A stretch of 64,000 nucleotides of DNA. It comes from Dictyostelium discoideum (Eukaryota). Of this stretch, positions 8,971 to 53,064 are shown in pieces. The notes under the pieces are model-generated. The model did no database searches, was not told the origin of the DNA, and worked only from the letters and a program-made list of their open reading frames with translations. The translations under genes were made by a program, and so were the position numbers. Position 1 is the stretch's first letter; each line of letters starts with the position of its first letter. The stretch is from contig CM000152.2 of NCBI GenBank assembly GCA_000004695.1, positions 2,912,001 to 2,976,000 of the forward strand, written 5' to 3'.

Positions 8971-9031
8971 GATTAATTCTTTTTTTTTTTTTTTTTTTTT
9001 TTTATATGAAAAAAAAAAAAAATTAATTAAA

Positions 9032-9862
9032 TTAATCCTTTAGATTAACTAATTGCCATCTACCATCAATTTTATTGAAATGGACTGGTTTCCATTCATC
9101 AGCATTTTTTCTATGATGAGCTAATTTTCTTTGTTCTTCTTCAACTTTAACTTTTTCTTGGGACATACCTTTGACATCATCTTTTTTGGAAGCATCGAAA
9201 ACACCTTTCCAAACTACAGATGAATCAGTTGGAAGAGTATTGCCATCATCTGGGAAAACAACTTTAGCTGATTCTGTTGGTCTAGTGAAGAATGGGGTAG
9301 TTTCATTGGTTTTCAAATTTGTAATTTTCATATCACCACTCCAAGTTCCTTTAATTTTGTATAGTTTCTCTTTACCTTTATAAACCTTGGATTCAAAACC
9401 ATTGTAAACTCCACCAAATAATGGTTTTGAAGTGTAGGTACTCTTTATTAGATAATCATTCTTGTCACTCTTTAGTATACCTTTACCAACATACTCTGAG
9501 AAGGATCTAAAAATTCTGATTGCCATTGGTGGTGCTACAAATGTAAACTTTTCATCATACTTTTCAAAGGTTATATGACTTTCACCTTCAAATGAAATCT
9601 TTACATAGGTACCCATGAATTGTGATCTTACAGGTAAACAGAATGTACAATTAACACCCTCCTTCTTATTGTAAACTGTTGAACTTGAAATTGGTGGATG
9701 ATGTGAAATTTGTTCAGCAAAGAAATAATTATCTGTAACATCATTACCATCACCATCTTTTACATGAATATTTGCTTGCCATGTTTCTCCTAATATTGGA
9801 TTTAATGGTTTTCTAGTTGTCTAATAAATTTTTTAAAAAATAAAAAAATAATAAAAATTAAG

Positions 9863-9924
<62 letters not shown>

Positions 9925-10177
9925 ATTAATATTATTTTAACTATTATTTATATATTTTTATAAAATTAATTTTTAAAATAATTACATCTTCTGTTTCTTT
10001 TAAAGTAGTAAATAAGTATCTTTGAACTTGTAACATTCTTTCTAATTCATTATCAATTTTATTTGCCCTAAAAATGAAAAAAATAAAAAAAAATAAAAAA
10101 ATAAAAAATTAAATATTAATATTTTTAGTAAAATTTAATTTAATTAATTTTATAAAAAGGAAATTTCCTTTTTTTAT

Positions 10178-10228
<51 letters not shown>

Positions 10229-10532
10229 ATTACTTTAATAATTCTCCAAAGAATGAAGAAAAATTATCAGAAAAATAACTTAGAGTTGATTTGGCAAGGA
10301 TAAAAGAACCAGGCATTGAAATATTTGAAATATCAGTACCGATACTAACTTTTTTAATCATTTTACCAATTAGAGCAAGTCTTGATGTTCCAGGTTCAGC
10401 ATCATCCATTGCATCAAGATCTTCTTTTGTTAATTGTGGAGCTGGTTTATTTGCATTTTCAGCTGCCAATTTTTCAATTTCAGCTTCATCAACTTCTTCT
10501 TCAACTGATACATTTTTATCTTTTTTACCCAT
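9032..10532 (-). CDS. Oxysterol-binding protein (OSBP/ORP) family member, short form. Exons 10234..10532, 9986..10067, 9032..9830
   Basis: Contains the OSBP fingerprint EQISHHPP in NYFFAEQISHHPPISS, found upstream of the track ORF start inside the same exon. Donors GTAATT at 10233 and 9985; acceptors ctag and ttag. Confidence 0.85.
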
Positions 10533-10856
10533 TTTTTTTTTAAAATAAAGTGATTTATTTTAATTTCTTTTATATATATATATATATTATTTATTTAATA
10601 GTATTAAAATTATTTTATTTTATTTTATTTTAATAATAAGAAAAAAAACTTTTTATTTATATGTGGAATTATTTTTTTTTTTTTTTATATGAATTTTTTT
10701 TTTTTTTTTTTTTAAATTTGTTAATTATTTTTATATTGTGGATAGATTTATATGAATATATGTTTTTGATGTTATTCTTTTAATTTTATTAATGAATATG
10801 ATTATTTATATTTACAAATTTAACAAAAAAAAAAAAAAAAAAAAAAAATAAATAAA

Positions 10857-10887
<31 letters not shown>

Positions 10888-11709
10888 GATAAAAATAAAA
10901 AAATATAAAAAAAAAAAATTAAACTGTCAGTGGTTATATTTATATTGATATGGGTATTTTAATGAGTATTATCATTTTTTTTTTTATTTTTTATTTATTT
11001 TTTTTTTTTTTTTTTGCCTTGTGGTGAGTGGGGGTAGTAATATCAACTTTATTTATCCAGATAGTAGGTAAAAAAAAAAAAAAAAAAAAAAAAATCATTT
11101 TTTTTTATTGCAATTCAACAAATGTGTTTTTCTGTTTTTTTAAAAAAAATTATTAACATATTTAGAATTATAAAATGGTTTCTATATAGTAATAATATTA
11201 TATATTAAAAAAATTTTTTTAAATTCAATACTTACACATTAAGTTATTCTTAAAAAATAAAAAAAATATAAAATTAAAAACAAAAAAACAAAAAAAAAAT
11301 AATTAATATTTAAAATATGACAACAACATTCGATTTAAATCGAAATCATAATATAATCAAGTTTCTCTATGAAGTGATTTAGTTTAATTTATACAATGGA
11401 AAAAAACACCAATAAATAAACAATTTTTTTTTTTCCAGACTACCCCATTTACCTGTGTAGAACAAACAAAAGAAACTAAATAGAATAAAATTTAGGGGTA
11501 ACCGCTAAAAAAAAAAACACAAATTGTTTGAAAAAAATAAAAAAAAAAAAAAGTTTGTTGCCAATTTTTATTTTTAGAAATACACTATATTTGGATTATT
11601 TTTATTTTTATTTTTATTTTATTTTATTTTTTTTTTTTCTTTTTTTATTTTTGTGATTATTATTATTTTTTTTTTATTTTTTATTTTTTTATTTTTAATT
11701 TATTTTATT

Positions 11710-13013
11710 TTATCTTGAATCTTTTAAATTTTCTAAAATTACTCTTTTTAAAGAATTAAATTTAGTTTCTAATTCTAAAGAGATTTGATATTTTGATTGA
11801 TTAACATTTTCAATAAAGAGTAATTGATGTTGTAATGTTATAGAATGAGCTAAAGATTTAATGATGGATAATTGTTGTTGTTGTTTAATTTCATGATGAT
11901 GAGTAAAGATTAATTCAATGTAAGCGTTAAAGTATTGAGGGAACATTTGAAGAGTATTGGATTTAATTTGATCCAATTTCTCAATGTAAAGAGAGACAGA
12001 TTTTAGAATGATCGATACAAACTCTTGAACGATCAAAAGATGAGGTTTAAAAGCTTCGAAATGGGATTGAATCGAGCAATAGTCGTGATTAACTCTTGAT
12101 AGATTTTGATTTGAAATTTCGATTTTTCTAGAACAATTCTCTATCTGGTTGATTAGACACCACTGATCAAATTGTTTTTTCAATAGGATTTGCTCGTCGG
12201 TAGTTTCCAAAGTGACAGAATTCAAATGGTTCAATTGTTTCTCTAATTTGGTTTTCTCAGTTTCCAATTTATCAAATTCTTTCTTTGCTCTAAATAGCTT
12301 CTCTTCAGTTTCAGTCATTGATTTCTCTAATAGGTCAAACCACCATTTAAAGTATGACTGAATTTGTTGAGAATATAGCTGAATCAATGGTTGCACCTGT
12401 TTCCAATATTTTATTGACTCATCAACGTATAGAAGATCGGTTATTACAGATTCGACATTTTCATTCAACTGTTTTGCTTTATCAATGAATTGTGAGCATT
12501 GATTGATCTCTTTGATCATTACCAATTGTTGTTGTATGAATTCATCAAGATTCGATCTAACTGTACGTACCAACTTTATAGTGGTCAATAGTCTAATGAA
12601 TAAATCATTATTTGTATCCAATTCAAATATTGATGGTAAAACTTTCATAATACTACCAATTGGTAAAACTGGTGATAAAATTAATGCTAAAACTTTTTCA
12701 TACAATTTAGTTGTTTCAATTAAATTACCTGATGAATTTGAAAATGTTAATGCTGGGCTTGAATTTGAACCAATTAAACTTGGTGAGTTATTTGAATTAT
12801 TATTATTACTACTACTGCCACTATTTGCAAATTGTCTTTGAATTGACTGAATTGCACCACCACTTGTATTTAATAAATTATTAACACTTGAATCTCTTGA
12901 ACTTGGTGTACCACCACTAAATGATAATGAATATCCTGATCTATTTACAATTGTTGGTGATAAATTTGGTGAACTTGATAATGATGACCCACTACTACTA
13001 CTACTATTACTAC

Positions 13014-16105: not shown

Positions 16106-16610
16106 AAAATAAATAATTAGTGTTGGTGTTTGATTTCGTTGATAAAAATAGATTAATTAATTAATTTAAAAATAGAATTAATAAAAAAAAAAATAAAAAA
16201 AATAAAATAAAAAAAATAAAAAAAAAAAATCAGAAACTGGGGAAAGTTTATTAAAACATAACTTTGATATTAAAGTAAAATATAATTATAACTGATCTAC
16301 ACCCCACTTTTATTTTTTTTTAATATTTTTTAATATTTTTTTTTTTTTGTCTTTTTTTCTAGATATTATTATCATAAAATCATATCACAATAAATAATTT
16401 TCACCCAAAAGAAAAAAAAAAAAAAAAAAATAACAACAAGCAACAATTTATTCAAAAAGCAAGAATCACCTATATTACCCTTCCTAATAGTTTTATAGAT
16501 AGTTTTAATAAAATTGTTTACCAGATTTTTTTTAGAGAATATTAAAAAATAAAATTTTTTTTTTTTATTTTATTTTTTTTTATATCTTTTAATTTAATTT
16601 TTTTATTTTA

Positions 16611-16745
16611 TATTATATTATTTTATATTATATTATATTATATTATATTATATTATATTATATTATATTATATTATATTATATTATATTATATTATATTA
16701 TATTATATTATATTATATTATATTATATTATATTATATTATATTG
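16611..16745. repeat. (TATTA)n pentanucleotide array, about 27 copies
   Basis: Direct reading; period 5. Confidence 0.9.
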
Positions 16746-16829
16746 TATTTTTTTTTATTTATTTTTTTTTTTCCAAATAACCTACTTTTTTTTATTTATT
16801 TTTTTTTTCCAGATTATCTACTTTTTTTT

Positions 16830-17120
16830 TTTTTTTTAAAAGTCAACATCAATTTATCAAAAATACCTTTAGAATAATCAACAACACAATCTCCAATTGT
16901 TGGCTAACATTTTTCTAATTGACACAATAGCCCAAAACCAAGAATTCCTATTGTAATTTTAGGTAGACATTTCAATGGAATATTAGTACAACCAATTTCT
17001 TTACCGCATTTATCAATTGTACATAAATTATTATAATCACAGGTAATATCACCAATACACTGATTTAAATTTTTAATATTATCATCATTAATTCCTAAAT
17101 TAATATTATAAATTTATTTA
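16830..17120 (-). pseudogene. Fragment from the 3' end of a Psi-like PA14/Dicty_CTDC gene, carrying an in-frame stop
   Basis: Reverse strand reads NLCTIDKCGKEIGCTNIPLKCLPKITIGILGFGLLCQLEKC, then TAG, then PTIGDCVVDYS. It is about 90 percent identical to 20161..20320. Confidence 0.55.
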
Positions 17121-17297
17121 ATAATTTTTTTATTTTTTTTATTTTTTTTAATTTTAAAAAATTCACTATATCCATAATTTGATTCTTCACTATATTTTTT
17201 TTTTTAAAAAAATTATTAAAACTATTATAAAAAATAACTTCATTTTAAAAATAAGATTAATAAAACAATTAATATACTTAATAATAATAAAAAAAAA

Positions 17298-17355
<58 letters not shown>

Positions 17356-17650
17356 TCCCATATTAATTTTACTCCACCCCAAATAATTGTCAATAATGTT
17401 TATATTACTTTGACCCACCAAACCCACCACCAACAACACCACCACCACTCAAAATTACAACATAGTTTTTGTTATTTGGTTATTTTATTGGAATATTAAA
17501 TTTCCGTTTATTTTAATTTTCAAAATCAATTTTTTTTTTTTTTTTTTCAAATAATTAAAATTAAATAGATTAATAAAAAATAAAAATAATGTAAGTTCAC
17601 AATTTTTTTATTAATTATTACTATCATTTATTTTTTATTTTTATTTTTTT

Positions 17651-17840
17651 AGATTTTATTTGTAATGATATACTAAATGATCAAGAAAACCACCAGAGTA
17701 ATCAATAACACAATCTCCACTAGTTGGCTCACATTTTTCTAATTGACAAATAAATCCAAGATCTAATAAACCAATAGTTTTCTTTGGAGGACATTTTCTA
17801 GTTGAAAGAAAAAAAAGTTTACACTTTCCAGTGGATTAAA
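17651..17840 (-). pseudogene. Truncated 3'-terminal fragment (about 190 bp) of a gene-B-like Psi copy
   Basis: Near-identical to the last roughly 190 bp of the 20544.. exon, diverging after ccagtggatt. Confidence 0.55.
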
Positions 17841-18051
17841 TTGTAAAGCACTAAAATGTGTAAATGATAATAAAAATAAAAATAAAAATAATAATAAAAA
17901 TAAAAATAAAAATAAAAATAAAAATAATAATAATAATAATAATTAATAAAAAAAATGAAAGTTCAAAATTTTTTGGAATTGTATATTTTTTTAAAAAATA
18001 TTTAATTATTATTATTTATTGTGAAGTAAATTAATTTGAAAAAAATATTTT

Positions 18052-19684
18052 TTAGCAAAGTAAAATTTCTAAAAGTCCTTTTAAAAAATCAGGAACGCAA
18101 TTACCAGAATATGGTTCACATTTTTCATTTTGACAAATAATACCAATTCCTAATAAATCAATAGCTTTCTTTGGTGGACATTTTATTTCTGGTAATGGTT
18201 CACATTTTCCATTTTTAACGTTACAAGAATTTGGTTTACATTTATTTGAATTATCACATTCTATCGGGGTATGTGTACAATAATTGTTAATTTTTGAACC
18301 TGCTGGAGTTTTATTTGATGGGAATGCGCAAGCATCAATTGTACATGGATTATTATCATTACAATCTATTTCAGGTACACATTGTGGTGGTGTTGTTGGT
18401 GGTTCTGTTGGTGGTTTTGTTGGTGGTTCTGTTGGTGGTCTTTTTGGTGGTTCTGTTGGTGGTTCTGTTGGTGATTCTGTTGGTGGTCTTGTTGGTGGTT
18501 CTGTTGGTGGTCTTGTTGGTGGTTCTGTTGGTGGTGGTCTTGTTGGTGGTTCTGTTGGTGGTGGTCTTGTTGGTGGTTCTGTTGGTGGTGGCCTTGTTGG
18601 TGGTCTTGTTGGTGGTCTTGTTGGTGGTCTTGTTGGTGGTTTTGTTGGTGGTTTTGTTGGTGGTTTTGTTGGTGGTCTTGTTGGTGGTGGACAAACATCA
18701 TCATTAACCCCTGGAATATTATCTTTTTTTTTTTTTTTTTTCAAATTAATCAATATTTTAAAATTTTAAATTTTCATAACAGAAATTCCATTTTTGGAAA
18801 AAAATAATACATACTGCATTGAAATACAAATGGTGTATCAAATTGGAGATAAACAAATGGTTTATTTTGATCAAATCTTTGGCACATAAAGAAATCAAAT
18901 GGATAAGTTTTGCCAACTTCAAGATTTAAGTTTTTATGATTAACTGCGGAATCAGGATTACTAGTACCTGCAAATTCAAATGCCAATTTACCATCGATAA
19001 ATACTGATAAATCACCTCCTGCATACAATGAAAAGAAATCAGATGTTTTTTTACTTACTTGATATTTGAATTTATAATGTCCTTCAATGCACCCTATAAT
19101 TATTAATATAAAAAAAAAAAAAAAAAAAAATATTAATAATTAATATTTTTTAAATATTATTTTTGATAAAAGCTTACAATATCTATTCTCACCAGATACA
19201 CCTTCATTCCAACCTTTTCCATTAATTGGAGTAAATGGTTTTAGAGTAACAGCATATTTAACTTTTCCATTTGAATAATGGACTGGATTAAAAGTGAATG
19301 TATTGATTACAGTTTTTGATATTCCAGGTTTTCCCATAAAAGATTGATCATATTCTTTTTGGTTGGAAATAAAATTAAATTTTCTATTTCCACAACTATC
19401 AAATTAAAAAAAAAAAAAAAATTAAAAATTAACAATAATTATTATTATTATTAAATAATTATTACATACCAATATTCAGGTTTATGAGTTTTTGGATTTA
19501 ATAGTTTTTTAACTAAACCAGTTGATTTGATTGATTTATCATTTGAATATTTAGTATAGTTGATATTAAATCCAGGTTGCGATGGCAAAAAGTCATAAAC
19601 TTTATATGGAACATTGAATTTTTGGGAAAAGGACGAACATATAAATAAACTTAAAAATAAAATTAAAATTAAAACTTTTTTCAT
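18052..19684 (-). CDS. Secreted PA14-domain plus Dicty_CTDC cysteine-repeat protein with a long PTxPPT linker (Psi-factor-like copy A). Exons 19470..19684, 19178..19395, 18815..19093, 18052..18722
   Basis: Signal peptide MKKVLILILFLSLFICSSFSQ. PA14-like exons ...NPVHYSNGKVKYAVTLKPFTPINGKGWNEGVSGENRYC and YAGGDLSVFIDGKLAFEFAGTSNPDS...FDFFMCQRFD. Last exon NPCTIDAC...CDNSNKCKPNSCNVKNGKCEP has CTDC-type Cys spacing. Donors GTATGT, GTAAGC, GTATGT. Confidence 0.75.
18387..18688. repeat. 12-bp tandem coding repeat (ggtggtcttgtt / ggtggttctgtt), about 25 units, encoding the (PTxPPT)n linker of copy A
   Basis: The repeat is visible directly in the sequence. It translates as PTRPPTKPPTEPPT on the minus strand, so it is a coding repeat, not a CRISPR array. 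Confidence 0.9.
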
Positions 19685-20160
19685 TTTTTTAGGTTTAATT
19701 TGTAGGAAAGTGAAAAAAAAAATTTTCTTTTTTTTTTTTTTTTTTTTTATTCCCTTTTTTTTTTTTTTTTTTTTAATTACATTTTTTTTTTTTTTTTTTT
19801 TTGGTAGTGTTTACAAATACTAAACTTTTCTTCTATTCTTTTTAGATTTAAACCCAGTTAAAATATATTTTTTAAATTGGAAAAAAAATTTAGTATTCTC
19901 ATTATTATAATTATAATTGTATGAATAAATATTATAACTGTTATCAACTAATAATAGGTTAGATTTTTTTTTTTTTTTTTTTCTTAAAAAAAAAAAAGTA
20001 TTAATAGTTAATTTGAGAATAATTAATAAACAAACATAATTATTACTAAAAACTAAAAAAACTTCCTGATTTCAAATTAAAAAAACTCTTAAAATCTGTT
20101 TATTCAAGATTCTTTTATTAAAAAATTAATTTTTTAATTTTATTTTTTTAATAAGTCCAA

Positions 20161-20320
20161 AACCAAGAATTCCTATTTTAATTTAAGATAGACATTTCAA
20201 TGGAATATTAGTACAACCAATTTCTTTATCACATTTATCAATTGTACATAAATTATTTCATCACAAGTAATATCATAAATACACATTAAATTTTTAATAT
20301 TATCATTATTTACTAAATAA
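20161..20320 (-). pseudogene. Decayed 3' fragment of a Psi-like gene, paralogous to 16830..17120
   Basis: Same CTIDKC/NDNIKNL-encoding sequence, with frame breaks. Confidence 0.5.
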
Positions 20321-20543
20321 TATTAAAAAATTAAAACTGTTATAAAAAATAAAATTAATAAAACAATTAATGCAGTGTATAGGAAAATAATAATAATAAT
20401 AATATCACAAAATATTTTTTTACTCCACCCCCCAAATAATTGCCAATAATATTTATTTTTCTTTAACCCACCACCACTCAAAATTACAACATAATTTTTG
20501 TATATTATTTCTAACAAACAAGTTTTTTTTTTTTTTTTAGGTT

Positions 20544-22232
20544 TTATTTGTCATGACATACTAAATGATCAAGAAAACCACCAGAGTAATCAATAACACA
20601 ATCTCCACTAGTCGGCTCACATTTTTCTAATTGACAAATAAATCCAAGACCTAATAAACCAATAGTTTTCTTTGGAGGACACTTTCTAGTTGAAAAGAGT
20701 TTACACTTTCCAGTGGATTTATCACATCCAACAGATTTACATAAATCTGGATCATTACATAAAACTGGTGAATGTGTACAACCAATTTCTATATCACATT
20801 TATCAATTGTACAAGGATTAAAATCATCACATGAAATTGGTTCAGTTTTACAAATTCCATCACTTTTATCACATCCTAATGATTTAGTACATTTATTATC
20901 GGGTGGGCAAATAGTATAGTTATTAGTACACCCAATATTTGGATAACATTTATCAATTGTACCTAGATTACCATCATCACATGAAATTGGTTCAGTTTTA
21001 CAAATTCCATCAATTTGATCACATCCTAATGATTTAAAACATTTATTTTTATTATCAACATCATTATTAGAACATTTAATTGGAGTATGTGTACAATATT
21101 CAGTAACATTTGCATTTTTTGGCAATTTAGATAAATCAGATGGACAAGAATCAATTGTACATAAATTATTATCATTACAAGTTGTCATATTGTTACAATC
21201 TGGTAATAGTGGTGGTGGTGGTGGACAAACATCATCATTAACTCCTGGAATATTATCTTTTTTTTTTTTATAAAAAAAAAAAAAACAATTAAAATTAAAA
21301 TAAAAAAATAAAATAAATATTTTTTTAAAAATAATATTTATAATAATAATACATACTACATTCAAAAACAAATGGTGTTTTAAAAAGAGCATATTTATAT
21401 GGTTTATATTCATCAAATCTTTGACATGAAAAGAAATCAAATGTATATGTTTCACCATTTGTTAAATTTAAACATTTATGATCTATACTTATTTCAGGAT
21501 CACTTATACCTGAAAATTCCAATACCAATTTACCATCAATAAATACTGAATATTCACCACCAATATAAAAAGAAAAATAATCAGATGTTTTTTTCTTTTT
21601 TATATTATATTTGAATTTATAATGACCTTCCATACACCCTTTTTAAGTATGTAAAAAATAAAAATAAATAAATAATATAATTTAAAAATGATATATTGTT
21701 AAAATTAATATCATTACTTACAAAATAGGTTATTTTCTTGTTCACCTTCATTCCAACCCTTTCCATTAATCGGGTAAAATGGATTAATAAAGATTTGATA
21801 AAGAACAATTCCGTTTTCATAGTAAGTGGGATAAAATTTAAATTGGTCAATAATATTCTTTGTTGAATCTTCATTTGAAATGAATGATTGATCATAAACA
21901 TTTTGATTATCAATAAATTTAAATTTACAATCTTCACAACTAAAACTATTTAAATAATTTAGTGTTTTTTATAAAATAATAAAAATAAAATAAATAAAAA
22001 ATTAATACACAAACACACTTACCAATATTCAGGTTTATTAAAAAAAGGATTTAAATTTTGTTTAACTAAACCATAATTTCCTATTGAATTTGATGAACAT
22101 TGAGTATAGTTAATATTAAATCCAGGTTGAGAAGATTTTAAAATCATATACCTTATATGGAGCAAAAAAAGATGTTTCACAATAACAATTTTTTAATATA
22201 GTTAAAATTACTACAATTAAACTGATTTTCAT
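20544..22232 (-). CDS. Secreted PA14-domain plus multi-Dicty_CTDC-repeat protein (Psi-factor-like copy B). Four exons, roughly 22020..22232, 21700..21940, 21350..21630, 20544..21262
   Basis: Signal peptide MKISLIVVILTILKNCYC. PA14 exons ...YYENGIVLYQIFINPFYPINGKGWNEGEQ and EGHYKFKYNIKKKKTSDYFSFYIGGEYSVFIDGKLVLEF. The 304-aa last exon carries more than five CxxxxCTIDKC-type repeats. Exon ends are approximate. Confidence 0.7.
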
Positions 22233-22620
22233 TTTAATTAATATTTTAAAATAATATAATAATTAATTTACTTAAATAATTATTTTATCCATTTATTTTT
22301 TTTTCTTTTTTTTTTTTTTTTTAATAAAATTAAGAAAGAATAAATTGTAAAAGATTAATTTATTGTAATTTTAATCATCATATTTAATTTTTTAAAAATA
22401 CTTAATTATGTAATATTTAATAAAAAGAAGTTGTAATTTTTTTAAAATCGGAAATATACCACACTAAAATGTGTGAATAATAATAATTATAATTAATTTT
22501 ATAAAATGAAAGTTCACAATTTTTCCAATTGTTTGTTTTTTCTATTTTAAAAAACTATTAAATTATTATTTTTTATTATTGGTTGTAAAGTAAATGATTA
22601 AATAAAAAAATAAATTAATT

Positions 22621-23932
22621 TCAACAAAGTAATTTATCTAAAAGTCCTTTAGAAGAATCAGGAATGCAATTACCAGAAGATGGTTCACACATTTCAGGCT
22701 GACAACCAACACCAATTCCTAATAAATCAATTGTTTTCTTTGGTGGACATTTTATTTCTGGTAATTGTTCGCATTTTCCATTTTTAACATTACAAGAATT
22801 TGGTTTACATTTATTTGAATTATCGCATTCTATCAGAGTATGTGTACAATAACTCTCAAAACTTGAACCTACAGGAATTTGAAATGATGGGGTGGACAGG
22901 TATCAATTGTACATAGATTATTACCATTACAATCTTTTTCAGGTACGCATTGTGGTGGACAAACATCATCATTAACCCCTGGAATATTATCTTTTTTTTT
23001 TTATTTTTTTTCAAATTAATCAATATTTTATAATTTTTCTTAGTATTTTTTTTTGAAAAAAATAATAATACTTACTGCATTGAAATACAAATGGTGTATC
23101 AAATTGGAGATAAACAAATGGTTTATTTTGATCAAATCTTTGGCACATAAAGAAATCAAATGGATAGGTTTTGCCAACTTCAAGATTTAAGTTTTTATGA
23201 TTTACTGCGGAATCAGGATTACCAGTACCTGCAAATTCAAATGCCAATTTACCATCGATAAATGCTGATATATCACCTCCTGCACACAATGAAAAGAAAT
23301 AAGAAGTTTTTTTACTCACTTGATATTTGAATTTATAATGTCCTTCAATGCACCCTATAATTATTAATATAAAAAAAAAAAAAAATAAAAAAAAAAAAAA
23401 AATATTAATAATTAATATTTTTTAAATATTATTTTTGATAAAAGCTTACAATATCTATTCTCACCAGATACACCTTCATTCCAACGTTTTCCTTTAATTG
23501 GAGTAAATGGTTTTAGAGTAACAACATATTTAACTTTTCCATTTGAATAATGGACTGGATTAAAAGTGAATGTATTGATTACATCTTTTGATAATCCAGG
23601 AGTTCTAATAAACGATTGATCATATTTTTCTTCATTGGAAATAAAATTAAATTTTTCATTTGCACAACTATTAACATTGGAAAAAAAATTAATAATTAAA
23701 TAATTATTACATACCAATATTCAGGTTTATGAGTGTTTGGATTTAATAATTTTTTAACTAAACCAGTTGATTTGATTGATTTATCATTTGAGTATTTAGT
23801 ATAGTTGATATTAAATCCAGGTTGCGATGGTAAAAGTCATAAACTTTATATGGAACATAGAATTTTTGGGAAAAGCACGAACCTATAAATAAACTTAAAA
23901 ATATAAATAAATTTTTTTTCATTTTTTTAGTT
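22621..23932 (-). pseudogene. Pseudogene copy (A') of Psi-like gene A, with at least two 1-nt frameshifts and no PTxPPT linker
   Basis: It is nearly identical to copy A exon by exon. In the signal-peptide exon gatggtaaaagtcataaac replaces gatggcaaaaagtcataaac, a 1-nt loss. In the last exon ...CTIDTCPPHHFKFL then TAG replaces ...CTIDACAFPSNKTPAGSKIN, another 1-nt loss. No long ORF survives over 22630..23000. Confidence 0.6.
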
Positions 23933-24199
23933 TTTGTTTGATTTTTTAGGAAATTTAAATTGATTCTTTTTTTTTTATTTTTTTTTTTAAGATTTTTTTT
24001 TTTTTTATTTTTTTTTTTATAATTTTTTTTTTTTACTTTTTTTTATTTTAAAAAAAAACAACCCAAATACTAGACAGTTTAGATTTATATCCAGTTAAAA
24101 ATTATTTTTAATATTTGAAAAATATTTTAGTATTGTCATTATTATAATTATTATTTTAAATTGGGAATAAATTTTTAATATTGTTATTAATGAGATTGG

Positions 24200-24233
<34 letters not shown>

Positions 24234-25405
24234 AATATTTAATAATAATTAGATTTAGAATTATAAATAAAAAAAATAATTACTAAAAATAAATTAAGAA
24301 AAAAAATAAATAAATTAATAAAACTATTTTTATCAAATTCTCAATTTTTTGAAACATTTGGATGAATTTTAAAATAAAAAAAAAAAAAAACACTGAAATC
24401 AAAATTTTTTTTTTTCTGTTAGGCCCGTAATTAGTTCACTATTAAAATCTGTTTACCCAAGATTTTTTATTTTGAAATTATTTTTTAAAAAAAAAAAAAA
24501 AAGAAAAAAAAAAAAAAATTAAAGTAAAAAAGTGTGAGTGATGTTAAAATAAACACACACACACATTAACTCACAAAAACAACACACCCCATCTAAAAAT
24601 AAATTTTTTGAAATTAATAATAATTTATTTTTATTTTATTTTTAATTATTATTATTATTATTATTTTTTTTTTTTTTTTTTTTAAGTGTTGTATAAAACA
24701 AAATTTTATTTTATAATTTTTCAAAAAATTAATTTACAATTATAATTTTATACTTGGTTGTAAAAAAAAAAATTACATTCTCACATATACTCACTCACAC
24801 AACACCTAAATAAAATAATTAACTTTATCCCATCATATTCGAAATTATTATCTCTCTTTCCTTCAAACTACACACCCTCTGTTTTTTTTATTTAATTTAT
24901 TTTAATTTTATTTTATTTTATTTAATTTATTTTATTTTATTTTATTTTTTCATTCAATTAAAATAATTTTCAATCTATTAGAGTTCAAATAATTTTATTT
25001 TTTAATTAATAAAACTATTCATAATTTTTTTTTTTTTTTTTTTTTTTTATGCTATTTAAATATTAAAATTTCAATTTTTTTAATAATATAAATATAGACA
25101 AATACCACTCACATTTGATTAAAAATTAAAAAAATAAAAATAATATATTAGATAGGTTTAAATAATCATTCTCATAATAAATTTCATTTTTTTTAAAAAA
25201 TTATAAATCAATTTAATTATTTTAAATTATTTAAATCATAAAAAAAAAAAAATAAAAAAAAAAATATATTATTTATTTATTTATTTTTTCATTTATTTAT
25301 TTATTTATTCATTTCCCTCTTTTAAACAATTTATTTATAAAAACTATATTAAAATTATATTAAATTAAATTTTTAATAAAAAAAAAAAAAAAAAAGAAAT
25401 AAAAA

Positions 25406-28646: not shown

Positions 28647-28717
28647 GCGTATGTGGTCTAGTGGTATGATGCATCCCTGCCACGGATGCGAACTGGGTTC
28701 GATTCCCAGCATACGCA
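28647..28717 (+). tRNA. tRNA-Gly, anticodon GCC, 71 nt, CCA not encoded
   Basis: Acceptor stem GCGTATG/CATACGC. Anticodon stem CATCC/GGATG with loop CTGCCAC. T arm CTGGG-TTCGATT-CCCAG. A box TGGTCTAGTGG; B box GGTTCGATTCC. A T-run follows. Confidence 0.85.
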
Positions 28718-28749
28718 CAATTTTTTAAGGTACCCCCAATAAAATCACA

Positions 28750-30955: not shown

Positions 30956-35600
<4,645 letters not shown>

Positions 35601-43421: not shown

Positions 43422-43505
43422 TTATCTAATTTTCATTAATATTGGTGGAACTAAACATATTTTTGGAGTTGGTTGCACAGAATTAATGACAGGAGATTGA
43501 TTACT

Positions 43506-43573
<68 letters not shown>

Positions 43574-43692
43574 GAATAGATGATGAAGGAACTAAAATTG
43601 ACTTAAATTTTTTAGCATATAAATTTCTATTTTCAATATCACCCAAATCATTATATATAATACTTTTTAAATAATAAATTTCTTTTAATAGT

Positions 43693-43736
<44 letters not shown>

Positions 43737-44304
43737 TGATTGATTTGAAAATAATTGTAAAAATAATTGTTCAGATCTATTTAAATAATCAATTGATTGT
43801 TTAGTTGAAGTTGAAATTAAAGATTTTGCCCAAAGTAAATATAATTGAGAATTTAATAATTTATCAGATAAAACCATTGGTAAAGTTTCCTTTATTAAAG
43901 TGATTGCTTTATCTAATCTATCAGTTGATAAATGAATTTTAATTAATGCAATATTGGAATCAGCTATTGAATTTGCTAAATGATAACTATTCGATAGAGA
44001 TAATGCTGATAGTGTATCTGATAAACCAGAGAATCTATATGGTGATGATTTTTCATAAATTTTTGAAAGCAATGAATAGAAATGAGTAATTTGTGAATCT
44101 AATCCGAAATCTCTTGAAATTTGAATACCTTTAACAATTAAATTCATTGATTTTTCATACATTCCTCTAACATTACAATAATATTTAATTATTTTTTGAT
44201 AACAAATAACAATTTGACTCCAACCTGATCCATCAACACTATCTTCTGACTGAAATCTATTTGTAATATTAATTAATGATTCAATTACAATTGATATCAA
44301 TAAT

Positions 44305-44380
<76 letters not shown>

Positions 44381-44594
44381 CAATATTAATCATTAAATGA
44401 TCAAATAAAATTGATAAAACTGTAAATGTTAATAAATTACCACAAAGATGTTGAGTTTTATAAATTGAAAAACATTTTATCAATATTTGAATTGCTTCAT
44501 TATATTTTGATTTCTTTGAATATAATAATGCTAATTTACAAAATGATAATAAATCTGGTGGTTGTTGGTTTTGTTGTTGTTGTTGTTTAATTTG

Positions 44595-44628
<34 letters not shown>

Positions 44629-44925
44629 GTACCTATATTATAGATGATTGTATTTTGAGAAGAAACAGCACGTAATGGGTCATGTTGAAGTGATAAATCA
44701 TTAGAATGATATGATTTCATTGCTAATTCAGTAAAAAATTGTGCAAGATCATTATTACCTAATAGTTCCCATGAACTTGAATAAAGATGATGTGCTATCA
44801 TTGCAGTGCTACTACTCTTATCTAATAATCTTGAAATTTCAATTGGTTGAAATATATCATTCCATAAATGAAATGATTTACCAAACATATTAACACCACC
44901 ATTATTATTACTATTACTACTATTA

Positions 44926-44972
<47 letters not shown>

Positions 44973-46552
44973 GTTGTTATTATTATTTGTATTATTTGTA
45001 TTATTATTATTATTATTATTATTATTGTTTGCATTATTTGTATTGTTATTATTATTTGTATTATTATTAGTATTTGAATTATTGTTATTATTATTATTAT
45101 TTGAATTATAATTATTTGAATTAATATTTGTTGAAAATTCACCATTTTCTAATTTATATTTTGAAAAAGCAGTATGATTGAGTGCTAAAAGGTCAGGCAT
45201 TTCAAGATCTCTACTTCTTTCAATTGATTTTTTTAAAATTTCAGAATCACTGTGGGATGCTAATAGGTATTGTAATAAATTTGAAGATTCCATTGAATTG
45301 TAAACAGACTTTTTTAATAATCTAGCTAACCAATGATCAGCCAATGCTAAACAAGAATGATCAGCACGTTCTTGTGCAATTCTAATTGCTTCTCTTAATG
45401 CTAGATAACTCTCTTCGTAATGACCGAAATGGTAATGTAATCTAACTAAATTCAATACCGCATATGGTAGCATTAAATTAGTGGTATCACCACTACCACC
45501 AATAAAATTATAATTATTATAATAATAATTACTACTATTACTATTACCCGATTGATAATTGTCATTTGGCGTGAACAGAAATGAAGATGCCGAGGAAGAC
45601 CATTGTGAAGATGTCATTTGACCATTAACATAATCGAAATATCTATGTAAATCTTCTAATGATTGGTCATAATCTTGATAACCAATATTAAATAACAAAG
45701 AAATTAAATGAACTCTCTTTACATTTGGTAATGATGCTTTCAACCTATTCACCTGATTCTCAATCTCCAATGGTGTTTCAATGCCAATTAATGAATTGAT
45801 TCTAATAGTCTCTTCATAAATAAATCTTTCTTCATCTAATGGTGATAAAAATTTAATTTTATTTTCATAATTACTAATTTCATTATAATCCTCTTGTTGT
45901 TGTTGCTGTTGTTCTTGATCCATTGACATATCTATACTATTATCATTTTCACAATGCTCTTTTTGTTGTTGTTGTTGTTGTTGTTGTTGAATTTTATTAA
46001 TTTCATTATAGAAATCATTTAGGTATTGATCTAATTGATCATAAAGTTTAATTAAACCATCGAATAGAATTTGATTAAAATTTAAAATTACTTTTTTAAT
46101 GAAGATACCTAAAATACTTTTTGAATCTAATAGTTGCATTTGTTTTGAATTTATAGATTCATGATCATTACTACCATTGAATAATTCTTTTAATGAACTC
46201 ATAAATTGATAGATATCATCTACACTATCAAATTGAATCATTCTTAGGAATTCATTATTTATAAATTGAATTGGTAATACATATTTTAATTCTTTTTCAA
46301 TGAAATCATATAAACTAACTTCTTTAACTGTATCTTGATAATTATTTTCCTTTTTTTTATTTATTTATTTAAATAAGTTAATCAGTATATAAAATATAAA
46401 TATTAATATTAATATGGTATATTTACTTTTATGTGTCTAATTAATAAATGAGATAAAGATTGTTTTTGATGGTATTTGATTGTTCCATTTAGATAATATT
46501 CAACTAAAACACAAATTGTAATTTTGTGAGGTGTTAATCTATATTTATCCAT
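43422..46552 (-). CDS. anapc5: Anaphase-promoting complex subunit 5 (APC5), heavily expanded with poly-N and poly-Q. Exons 46436..46552 and 43422..46349
   Basis: The N-terminal exon MDKYRLTPHKITICVLVEYYLNGT...LLIRHIK parallels the APC5 N-terminus (TPYKIAVLVLL). A GTAAAT donor follows. The second exon contains LPYAVLNLVRLHYHFGHYEESYLALREAIRIAQERADHSCLALADHWLARLL, which matches the ANAPC5 signature TPR segment. Confidence 0.7.
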
Positions 46553-46705
46553 TATCTTGGTTTTAATAAAATAAAATAAAAAAAATAAAAAAAAAGTGAA
46601 AAAAAAGAAAAATAATGAAAATTTGGCGCAAAAAAAAAAAAAAAAAAAAAAAAAAAACACAAAAATAGTGTGATTAATTAAAAGTAAAAAAAGAGTTTTT
46701 AATAA

Positions 46706-48307
46706 TTAATATTTATTTATTTTTGTTTCTTTAAAGGAAATATTTTTAACATGAGGTTTAAAATTTAAAATTTTATCTTTCATTAATATATCAAGATTAA
46801 TTGTATGTAATGATTCTGGTAAAATTGGAATGATATCATTTTGAAAATCATCACTACTATAACAATGATTTAAAGTTAATTCAGTTAATGATTCTGGAAG
46901 ATAATCAATTTTTAAATTTGATTGGTAAATATCCATTTCTGTTTTTGGTGTTTTTATTGGTATTGTTATTGTTGAAGTATAAATTGTATCAATAAGTGAT
47001 AATTTTTTTAAATTATTTGGTAGTGAACCAATTGGAAATGTTAAATGTAAATTTTTAGTTTTAAATGTTAAATCAGTTATTGAATTTGGTAATATATTCG
47101 ATTCAAATATTACATTCTTATCTCTAAGAGTATATGATGAACTTTGGTATATAAATGATTGAATATTTGAATCTAATGGTATTAACTTTTTATTTAAATC
47201 AATTTCATGACCTTTTAAATGAAGTTTTAATAAATTTAATTTATTTTCACCAAAGTCCATAAAATTTGGTAAATTAATATTAATAGTCAATTCATCCAAT
47301 ATTGTTGGTAATGCACCAGATTCAATAACTAAACTTTTTAGAATACATAATAATGTTAAACATTTAACACTTGATGGTACAATACCAATTCTAAGAAATG
47401 ATGAATTTTTTTCTGAATAATAATTATAATAGCTTATAGTTTCAATTTCTTCAAATTTATAATTTTTATAATTAATAACATTGTTACTATTATCACCACC
47501 ACCACCACCATCACCACCATTATCATTATTACCACCATCGATATTATTACTATCAACAGATGATATTAATTTCATTGTATCAACTTGAAATTTTAAAATT
47601 TTAATTGAATTTGGTAAAATGTTTTTTTTAATTTTATTACTATGATCATTTATTTTTAAATTTGTAATTGAAGATGGGATATCTGTTTGTTTTAATTCTA
47701 AACCTTTTTTATTACCCCAATAACAAGATCTCCAAAATGATAATGATGTAACTGAATTTGGAATTTTAAATTTATTTGATAGTTGTGAACATTTTTTAAT
47801 AGATATTGATTTAATATTTTTAGGAATAATATCATCATCATCATCATTATTATTATTATTGTCACCAAAATTGTCCCCTTGTAAAATTACATTTTCAACA
47901 TTTGTTACACTTGATGGTAAATCTTTTAATGATATAACTCTTTTTTTTAATTTTTTAATTGAAAACTCTTCATCAGAATCACAATCACTATCAATACTAA
48001 ATATTACATTTTCAACAGTGTTTGGAATTTCTGGACCTGTAATGATAGGTACCGGTTCTGTGAATTCAATAGTTTTTAATAACCCATTACATGGTAAATC
48101 ACCAATTTCTAATGGTTTTCTACTTTGATATTCTAATGTTTGAATATAATCCCTATCTTTATATTTCAATAATGTTTCTTTATTTTCAAATTGAACAAAT
48201 TCATTATTAATTATTTTTATAAATTCAAATATTTTAAATTTTAAAAATTTATTTCTCCAAGTTTTAAAAAATAAACTATCATTTAAATCTTTACTATTTA
48301 TTTCCAT
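46706..48307 (-). CDS. FNIP-repeat / LRR-like protein, single exon
   Basis: Repeated IPNSVTSLSF, IPSSITNLKIN, LPNSIKILKF, LPNSITDLTF, LPNNLKKLSL and LPESLTELTL, about every 22 aa. It also has an N/D/G-rich insert. Confidence 0.7.
   Translation of the reverse strand: MEINSKDLNDSLFFKTWRNKFLKFKIFEFIKIINNEFVQFENKETLLKYKDRDYIQTLEYQSRKPLEIGDLPCNGLLKTIEFTEPVPIITGPEIPNTVENVIFSIDSDCDSDEEFSIKKLKKRVISLKDLPSSVTNVENVILQGDNFGDNNNNNDDDDDIIPKNIKSISIKKCSQLSNKFKIPNSVTSLSFWRSCYWGNKKGLELKQTDIPSSITNLKINDHSNKIKKNILPNSIKILKFQVDTMKLISSVDSNNIDGGNNDNGGDGGGGGDNSNNVINYKNYKFEEIETISYYNYYSEKNSSFLRIGIVPSSVKCLTLLCILKSLVIESGALPTILDELTININLPNFMDFGENKLNLLKLHLKGHEIDLNKKLIPLDSNIQSFIYQSSSYTLRDKNVIFESNILPNSITDLTFKTKNLHLTFPIGSLPNNLKKLSLIDTIYTSTITIPIKTPKTEMDIYQSNLKIDYLPESLTELTLNHCYSSDDFQNDIIPILPESLHTINLDILMKDKILNFKPHVKNISFKETKINKY

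Positions 48308-49103: not shown

Positions 49104-53064
<3,961 letters not shown>

Follow-up and report, generated by a model that had tools for sequence, protein, structure and literature searches.

A cluster of related genes and gene remnants in D. discoideum, on the minus strand of a 64,000-nucleotide stretch of DNA (the window), is very probably a tandem array shaped by gene birth and death, whose members encode secreted glycoproteins of a small, lineage-restricted family. Two units were found side by side, each laid out as [3' fragment][B][A] on the minus strand, as the first-pass annotation had described apart from the intactness of B. Of the four gene copies, A alone keeps an open frame and would still make a secreted protein. 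Judged by reading frames alone, A would be functional and B and A' (the A-type copy of unit 2) dead; B, with its single lesion, could be a strain-specific null allele and might, remotely, be rescued.

Gene copies, stub and fragments

Gene A (18052-19684, minus strand) was modelled with four exons (19684-19470, 19395-19178, 19093-18815 and 18722-18052), an open frame of 460 aa and canonical GT..AG introns. In L001, an independent D. discoideum assembly, the annotated gene has identical boundaries and is likewise 460 aa long; the earlier description of A as intact holds. The protein starts with a signal peptide (read directly from the sequence as MKKVLILILFLSLFICSSFS, followed by QK), and a Pro/Thr linker joins its PA14-like domain to a Cys-rich C-terminal region. 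The mucin-like PPT(K/R/E) linker is encoded by a 12-bp tandem repeat of 24.6 copies (18385-18688, minus strand; TRF), and the alignment of A-type copies showed that A' lacks this repeat, whose length differs from strain to strain. The dN/dS of A against its L002 orthologue was 0.39.

A' is a pseudogene (22621-23922, minus strand; exons 23922-23715, 23667-23450, 23354-23076 and 22990-22621). Its frameshifted state, already proposed, was traced to two 1-bp deletions, at 23832-23835 and approximately 22889-22893, both also present in L001; repairing both gave a 358-aa ORF. The Pro/Thr linker was wholly lost, collapsed to 'PP' at approximately 22957, and intron 1 was only 47 nt long. The A' orthologue is intact in L002 (P0001, 381 aa) and carries an independent nonsense mutation in L003.

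The B-type copy of unit 1 is reduced to a stub (B', 17598-17837, minus strand) corresponding to the last ~55 codons of a B-type gene, with a remnant ORF at 17659-17835 (translation STGKCKLFFLSTRKCPPKK...GGFLDHLVYHYK) and 88.8% identity to 20490-20719 (self-blastn, dust on). Its 5' ~1.76 kb is deleted: 89 bp of unit 1 (17838-17925) correspond to positions 20720-22475 of unit 2. A degenerate B' stub lies at the corresponding place in L004. FRAG1 (16822-17116, minus strand; LNQCIGDITCDYNNLCTIDKCGKEIGCTNIPLKC...CQLEKC*PTIGDC) is the relic 3' end of a B-like gene, with one CTDC repeat, the C-terminal Cys module of the family and an in-frame stop at 16904-16906. In self-blastn it matched the 3' ends of B and, at 88% identity, FRAG2 (16929-17116 against 20154-20333, 88.3%, dust on). 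FRAG2 (20154-20333, minus strand) is a copy of the CTDC part of this relic; it is frameshifted (20244-20265) and lacks the AG used as acceptor in the gene models of other genomes. Orthologous relics lie at the end of the array in L002-L005. The stub and both fragments were found essentially where the first-pass annotation had placed them.

The public annotations of L002, L003 and L005 treat the fragments as genuine, optionally spliced terminal exons of B-type genes, which we consider improbable. In L002 the annotation gives B an additional final exon made from the FRAG2 homologue (P0010, 499 aa). In this model and those of 528 and 606 aa, ...GGFL(N/D)HL is joined to CIDDITCD... by splicing from a GTATGT donor where B ends to an AG ahead of the fragment; the fragment of L005 is moreover an uninterrupted ORF with its own stop. 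However, every B orthologue has its own in-frame stop directly after the family-typical end HLVCHDK, and the fragment would add a second complete C-terminal module, which never occurs twice in A-type or D. citrinum B proteins. Both fragments of the window are disabled, one by the stop and the other by the frameshift and the lost AG, and one of them sits after the headless B' stub. We retain the reading of the fragments as relics.

Gene B (20544-22232, minus strand; exons 22232-22023, 21939-21722, 21638-21357 and 21256-20544) had been described as intact, but we classify it as a single-lesion pseudogene or null allele. Alignment with the intact L002 orthologue revealed a +1 insertion in exon 1 (AAAA at 22136-22139 in the window and L001, AAA in L002). 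The frame opened by the signal-peptide ATG stops after 38 codons and the signal peptide is out of frame with the rest of the protein; removing one A gave a 473-aa ORF without stops. A conserved CTDC cysteine is also replaced by glycine (20961-20963), and B contains an internal 122-bp repeat (20776-20897 and 20926-21047, self-BLAST). A small intron rescuing exon 1 was considered and rejected, as the GT after ...CCATATAAG and the next AG give an immediate stop.

The first-pass annotation had proposed that the duplication was recent and that clean complementary loss then left a working A in unit 1 and a working B in unit 2. This now seems very unlikely. In its favour, B carries only the one lesion, with the remaining three exons, the splice sites and the stop undamaged, and its dN/dS against L002 is 0.30. 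A 447-aa product starting at an internal ATG is still predicted in the automatic annotation of L001, and the frame could in principle be recovered if the AAAA run were read with a +1 slip. Nevertheless, translation from the signal-peptide ATG ends prematurely, and the product of the internal ATG (445 aa from 22147) has no signal peptide despite being a Cys-rich protein of extracellular type. The insertion recurs in the independent assembly, the conserved cysteine is lost as well, and the duplication is common to diverged lineages and hence not recent (see below). Unit 1 keeps A and lost B', as had been proposed, but unit 2 lost A' and its B is frameshifted too, indicating overall decay of the array and not reciprocal loss.

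Tandem duplication, its age and gene conversion

Dust-masked self-BLAST revealed paralogous blocks that are collinear, on the same strand and 82-89% identical, with E values from 0 to 2e-60. The first (18684-20061 in unit 1, minus strand), which extends from ~380 bp upstream of A through exons 1-3 into the beginning of exon 4, matched 22952-24302 (85% over 1407 bp, E=0). The second (22476-22958 in unit 2, minus strand), which holds the 3' portion of A' together with flanking sequence downstream of it, matched 17926-18390 at 82% identity; the stub and fragment pairs described above complete the series. L001 was 99.7% identical over 16.4 kb, with an unchanged layout and only 9 substitutions. A common original isolate is the probable source of both L001 and the window (AX2 and AX4 laboratory strains, PMC12745789). 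The identical lesions of L001 exclude sequencing error, but they do not imply that the lesions are widespread in nature. The collinear blocks, their reproduction in the independent assembly and a single-unit outgroup (L005) identify a tandem segmental duplication of an [A][B][FRAG] unit, as had been claimed.

That AT-rich low complexity or mis-assembly of one unit simulates the duplication can practically be dismissed: the A+T content of the region is 70-88%, and its homopolymer and simple-repeat tracts are long, but the E=0 blocks persist under dust masking, the similarity falls in coding exons whose reading frames are conserved, a divergence of 12-18% and large indels separate the units, and the multi-copy layout is also present in the independent long-read assembly and four other genomes. 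Elsewhere in the window, two ORF pairs of similar size (30956-35600 and 43422-48307) were considered as a second duplication and discarded, there being no similarity between them.

Comparative maps were drawn for six loci, and five related genomes bear on the age of the duplication. The cryptic lineage L005 has a single unit, [A][B][FRAG], and D. citrinum (L006) has [A remnant][B], with a B protein of 776 aa. L002 and L003 share the order [A'][B][FRAG][A][FRAG], and L004 has [A'][B][A][B' stub][A''][FRAG]. The fourth gene of L004 was taken as a candidate intact B', but turned out to be a third A-type copy joined to the relic. The additional A'' and the missing inner FRAG of L004 indicate a history more complex than one duplication.

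The duplicated arrangement is common to L002-L004, lineages at dS 0.12-0.25 and, together with the grouping of the C-terminal exon by orthology, this contradicts the 'recent' origin first assigned to it. In this exon, A and A' differ by 11.6-14.9%, versus 2.7-11.5% within the A and A' groups. By contrast, exons 2 and 3 group by genome (paralogues differ by 2.3-5.6%, orthologues by 6-10%). This mosaic points to interlocus gene conversion after the duplication, which accounts for the high identity of A and A' in exons 2 and 3 and for a large share of their overall similarity. A-type copies were lost independently at least three times: in the laboratory-strain lineage, in one tropical isolate and in D. 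citrinum. Across the compared copies, dN/dS was 0.14-0.6, with no positive-selection signal at this resolution.

We propose the following history. The ancestral unit was [A][B][FRAG], in which FRAG was by then the decayed 3' end left by an earlier B-like copy. A single tandem duplication of this unit, probably by unequal crossing-over, took place after the L005 lineage split and before the other D. discoideum-clade lineages diverged. Its product, on the minus strand of the window, reads [A'][B][FRAG][A][B'][FRAG] in the direction of the genes. B' then lost its 5' ~1.76 kb, and the exons of A and A' encoding the PA14-like domain were homogenised by gene conversion while the C-terminal exon diverged. 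In the lineage of the window strain, slippage-type 1-bp indels in short homopolymer runs would have disabled A' twice and B once, and repeat collapse probably removed the A' linker.

Domain architecture and family assignment

In the predicted protein plan, a signal peptide is followed by a divergent PA14/fibro-slime beta-sandwich, putatively carbohydrate-binding, and by a linker that is either short and of Pro or long and of Pro/Thr. Next come the Dicty_CTDC repeats, of which A-type proteins have one and B-type proteins several, and a conserved C-terminal module rich in Cys. This agrees with the domain family first suggested (signal peptide, PA14-like domain, Dicty_CTDC repeats) and with a Psi-type architecture, with the signal peptide of B out of frame. 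The profile searches supported the assignment in part. Dicty_CTDC (PF00526, gathering threshold 27 bits) was exceeded in B exon 4 (44.2 bits, three stretches), FRAG1 (27.3 bits) and FRAG2 (28.5 bits), but A-type proteins, with one partial repeat, stayed below it (16-22 bits; A 18.1 bits). Pfam PA14 (PF07691, threshold 24 bits) was below the gathering score everywhere (A 16.7 bits, A' 21.4 bits, orthologues 17.5-19.6 bits, B without a hit). Residues ~140-217 of A, A' and B matched Fibro-slime (TIGR02148) with E from 2e-10 to 3e-8 (A E=1.9e-10). The Fibro-slime scores as a whole were 29.9-41.8 bits, significant by E value (1e-10 to 6e-7) but below the curated cut-off of 45 bits.

A profile of the N-terminal domain retrieved 1269 proteins at E<=1e-3, and all 10 of the 10 distant hits examined contained PF07691 above threshold in the matched region. 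In the underlying domain alignment the first row is the orthologue P0001, 93% identical in the domain. Comparison with dictyostelid PA14+CTDC proteins by hhalign gave a probability of 99.6% (E=1.3e-23). The domain is predicted to adopt a PA14-type beta-sandwich fold, with an AF2 model of moderate confidence (pLDDT 63; residues 16-79 under 50). The sequence-profile search of the PDB returned nothing significant (best E=0.097, ABC-transporter subunits). When full-length A was used to look for homologues, Pro/Thr low-complexity matches (extensins, LPXTG proteins) predominated, and only the ten Dictyostelium hits were meaningful. Neither the homologue searches nor the cluster look-ups returned a named D. 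discoideum Psi protein, and the look-ups did not return exact A. The A/B subfamily was found only in the D. discoideum/citrinum/dimigraforme group.

Significance and comparison with known systems

The main value of this analysis is annotation. For the window strain, both B and A' need to be marked as a pseudogene or null allele, and several public gene models are at fault: P0005 splices around frameshifts, the 447-aa B of L001 starts at an internal ATG, and P0010 appends a relic exon. The locus defines a divergent PA14-like subfamily missed by Pfam and is a compact, well-resolved case in which an AT-rich genome shows tandem duplication and truncation together with gene conversion and repeated pseudogenisation. 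It is ordinary gene-family birth and death, which reveals no new mechanism and opens no long-standing question. Signs of turnover were also seen in the gain of a third A copy in one cryptic lineage and the expansion of the CTDC repeats of D. citrinum B. It is unlikely that the subfamily represents fast-turnover, presence/absence-polymorphic secreted lectins of the D. discoideum species complex whose variation reflects selection and not neutral decay. If it did, copy-number and null-allele variation could reflect strain-specific extracellular interactions (matrix, prey or partner recognition).

The PA14 carbohydrate-binding domains of the Marinomonas RTX adhesin, the yeast Flo5/Epa/Cea1 adhesins and the RsgI3 sensor are 8-14% identical in sequence to the subfamily, and the model is of moderate confidence. 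The Fibro-slime domain is shared by Dictyostelium and Fibrobacter-type bacterial proteins, and bacterial ones are among the profile matches of the subfamily, although A, A' and B score below the curated cut-off.

The closest architecture is that of the Psi/DicA family of D. discoideum (prespore-cell-inducing factor; PsiA, DicA1/PsiF and others), whose members are PA14 glycoproteins that are Cys-rich and secreted (PMC12821622; Kolbinger et al. 2005, cited by PMC6889452). The A/B subfamily has the same order of signal peptide, PA14-type domain and Dicty_CTDC repeats, and shares the motifs KPxYCCG, FxPIxGxG(W/F), (F/W)C(M/I)ExH and GxTYxFDFFxC(E/Q)R. However, at 358-473 aa its proteins are shorter, GGD(I/L)S(A/V)F or GGEYSVF stands in place of the canonical GDDDVWVF that related dictyostelid proteins have, and the subfamily possesses a C-terminal module of its own, KCPPKK..LLG(I/L)G..CQ.EKCEP.SG.C. 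Identity to dictyostelid PA14+CTDC proteins was ~28%, in a comparison that included no named Psi protein, and the Psi-factor-like developmental signalling or adhesion function proposed in the first-pass annotation is an analogy. By this analogy with PA14 lectins and Psi/DicA factors, the products may be putative extracellular glycan-binding or matrix/signalling glycoproteins.

The polymorphic tgr loci of Dictyostelium form a birth-and-death tandem array with gene conversion (PMC12745789). Although the A/B locus (dN/dS 0.14-0.6) is without signs of hypermutation, balancing selection or recognition function, it resembles them in that genes are duplicated in tandem, copy number differs among closely related lineages, pseudogenes arise repeatedly and neighbouring paralogues undergo gene conversion.

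Paralogous units and the lesions of their copies

Dust-masked self-BLAST of window 15.5-25.5 kb recovered four collinear paralogous blocks on the same strand (18684-20061 and 22952-24302, 85%, 1407 bp; 17926-18390 and 22476-22958, 82%; 17598-17837 and 20490-20719, 88.8%; 16929-17116 and 20154-20333, 88.3%). As E values ranged from 0 to 2e-60, the similarity between unit 1 (3' fragment FRAG1, B' stub and gene A) and unit 2 (FRAG2, gene B and A') is neither chance nor low complexity, confirming the tandem duplication and layout proposed in the first-pass annotation. Unit 2 positions 20720-22475 (1757 bp) hold most of B and a stretch of intergenic spacer; unit 1 has just 89 bp in their place (17838-17925), owing to a deletion that removed the 5' end of B'.

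AT content is extremely high across the region, and its GT..AG introns are short. Gene A (minus strand, exons 19684-19470, 19395-19178, 19093-18815 and 18722-18052) encodes 460 aa. The A gene called independently in L001 (GCA_054883475.1, CM142509.1), a chromosome-scale D. discoideum contig, has the same ends and length. L001 was 99.7% identical to the window across 16.4 kb, differing by 9 substitutions and changed homopolymer lengths. A 12-bp tandem repeat in A (18385-18688, 24.6 copies) codes for a Pro/Thr linker, PPT(K/R/E), of about 100 aa; A' has no counterpart of this repeat, its linker being collapsed to 'PP'. Linker length varies among genomes (A has 460 aa in the window vs. 403, 425 and 394 aa in the relatives L002-L004). 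Homopolymer tracts of about 80 nt lie directly upstream of the A and A' start codons (19723-19802 and 23963-24053; runs of T as read on the plus strand and of A on the strand of the genes), and their length differs between the window and L001.

Reading frames were checked by tblastn with intact orthologues from L002 (P0001 for A', P0010 for B), and lesions were then located by nucleotide alignment. A', already described as frameshifted, changes frame twice, inside exons 1 and 4; B, previously described as intact, shifts within exon 1. B has AAAA at 22136-22139 vs. AAA in the intact L002 orthologue, while A' has TTTT instead of TTTTT at 23832-23835 and lacks one base at approximately 22889-22893; its intron 1 measures just 47 nt. 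All of these lesions recur in L001 and therefore are not sequencing errors. Unrepaired, B stops after 38 codons and A' after 54. Because removing one A from B gives a stop-free 473-aa ORF and adding two bases to A' gives a 358-aa ORF, both are probably young pseudogenes or null alleles. A is the only copy still open in the window strain, and the reciprocal loss supposed earlier consequently does not hold.

A conserved CTDC cysteine of B is replaced by glycine (20961-20963). B exon 4 contains a 122-bp direct repeat (20776-20897 vs. 20926-21047, 87.7% identity), a duplicated CTDC pair, so that repeat number is still changing within B. The B' stub translates, between two stops, as STGKCKLFFLSTRKCPPKK...GGFLDHLVYHYK. 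FRAG1 joins a CTDC repeat to the family C-terminal module and has an in-frame stop at 16904-16906; FRAG2 keeps the CTDC part alone and is frameshifted.

Public gene models conceal the lesions. P0005 (297 aa, L001 10001-11302) splices round the A' frameshifts, and the 447-aa B model of L001 (11776-13379) starts at an internal ATG and lacks a signal peptide. P0010 (L002 11796-14072) takes in the relic fragment as one more terminal exon, as do two further B models, of 528 and 606 aa. Several public models treat FRAG as an appended B exon; since a stop of its own follows HLVCHDK in each B orthologue and FRAG holds a second complete C-terminal module, we read FRAG as the relic of an older B-like copy.

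Elsewhere in the window, a single tRNA-Gly(GCC) gene (28647-28718, plus strand) lies upstream of a serine carboxypeptidase (Peptidase_S10) gene. The plus-strand gene at 50635-53064 combines a ComC supersandwich domain (PF22933, E=2e-55) with repeats of EGF/teneurin type; the weak tblastn hit between it and the Cys-rich region of B was spurious. Two minus-strand ORF pairs (30956-35600, 936+530 aa; 43422-48307, 939+533 aa) are of near-equal size but unrelated, and were rejected as another duplication; the first is an Ank/BTB and Ank/MATH protein pair.

Age of the duplication

Comparison genomes came from Holland et al. (PNAS 2025, PMC12745789), whose sequenced set comprised AX2-214, two D. discoideum isolates from the tropics, two candidate cryptic species, and D. 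citrinum and D. dimigraforme; strain names were assigned to individual accessions by inference. Syntenic loci, flanked on one side by a gene for a 132-aa protein and on the other by an RCC1-RhoGAP gene, were mapped with exon-level tblastn. In gene orientation, the window and L001 carry A' pseudogene, frameshifted B, FRAG pseudogene, A, B' stub and FRAG pseudogene; the D. discoideum isolates L002 and L003 carry A', B, FRAG, A and FRAG pseudogene. A and A' are both open in L002, and A' of L003 has an independent nonsense codon (SY*TH). L004 ('D. cf. discoideum'), a cryptic lineage, has A', B, A, a B' stub with a stop, A'' and FRAG; this third A-type copy (16431-18226) brings the A-type copy number to a span of 0 to 3 among close relatives. 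L005 (also 'D. cf. discoideum') has A, B and FRAG as an open ORF. L006 (D. citrinum) has A remnants (8983-9075 and 9337-9468) beside a single 776-aa B orthologue (10001-12639) with nine CTDC stretches, expanded through a near-identical repeat of about 50 aa.

Distances in the C-terminal exon followed orthology (11.6-14.9% separating the A group from the A' group, 2.7-11.5% inside either), with the single A of L005 outside both groups. The duplication is therefore older than the divergence of the lineages of the window, L002, L003 and L004 (dS 0.12-0.25), hence not the recent event first annotated, and younger than the L005 split. Exons 2+3 grouped by genome (2.3-5.6% between paralogues vs. 6-10% between orthologues); this discordance points to later homogenisation of the N-terminal exons of A and A' by gene conversion. 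dN/dS was 0.14-0.6 on all branches, including pseudogene branches, where it is consistent with recent inactivation. Judging from sequence context, the duplication would have arisen by unequal crossing-over, the frameshifts by slippage within T5, A3 and C tracts, and the A' linker loss by collapse of the 12-bp array. As a tandem array under birth and death, the locus is nothing unusual for Dictyostelium; it is worth most for annotation and as a tidy case of gene conversion with recurrent pseudogenisation.

Domain family

For Dicty_CTDC, the Pfam gathering threshold was reached by the window translations of B exon 4 (44.2 bits), FRAG1 (27.3) and FRAG2 (28.5), and missed by that of A (18.1). Pfam PA14 was sub-threshold throughout (16.7-21.4 bits vs. 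a cut-off of 24), with no match in B. The HMM search suggested earlier thus had a mixed outcome. NCBIfam Fibro_Slime (TIGR02148) matched A, A' and B (E 2e-10 to 3e-8), scoring below its 45-bit cut-off. A profile of the N-terminal domain, built from eight orthologues and searched against 1.84 billion proteins (E<=1e-3), matched 1269; those bearing names were 'PA14 domain-containing protein' in other dictyostelids and 'fibro-slime domain-containing protein' in bacteria. PF07691 was above threshold in the matched region of all ten distant matches examined, five of which also had Dicty_CTDC. hhalign against six dictyostelid PA14+CTDC proteins gave 99.6% probability (E=1.3e-23, 28% identity, 198 columns). 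Taken together, these scores and alignments argue for a divergent PA14/fibro-slime domain at the N-terminus, and the family assignment made earlier stands, with PA14 below the Pfam threshold.

The family shares KPxYCCG, FxPIxGxG and GxTYxFDFFxCxR with dictyostelid PA14+CTDC proteins, whereas their canonical GDDDVWVF is GGD/GGE here. The function, proposed solely from the analogy to PA14 lectins and to Psi/DicA factors, would be that of a secreted, probably O-glycosylated protein, glycan-binding or acting in matrix or signalling. The window proteins are Psi-like in architecture. Published work supports PA14 as the hallmark of the Psi family, whose members are secreted proteins of development (PMC12821622; Kolbinger 2005, cited via PMC6889452).
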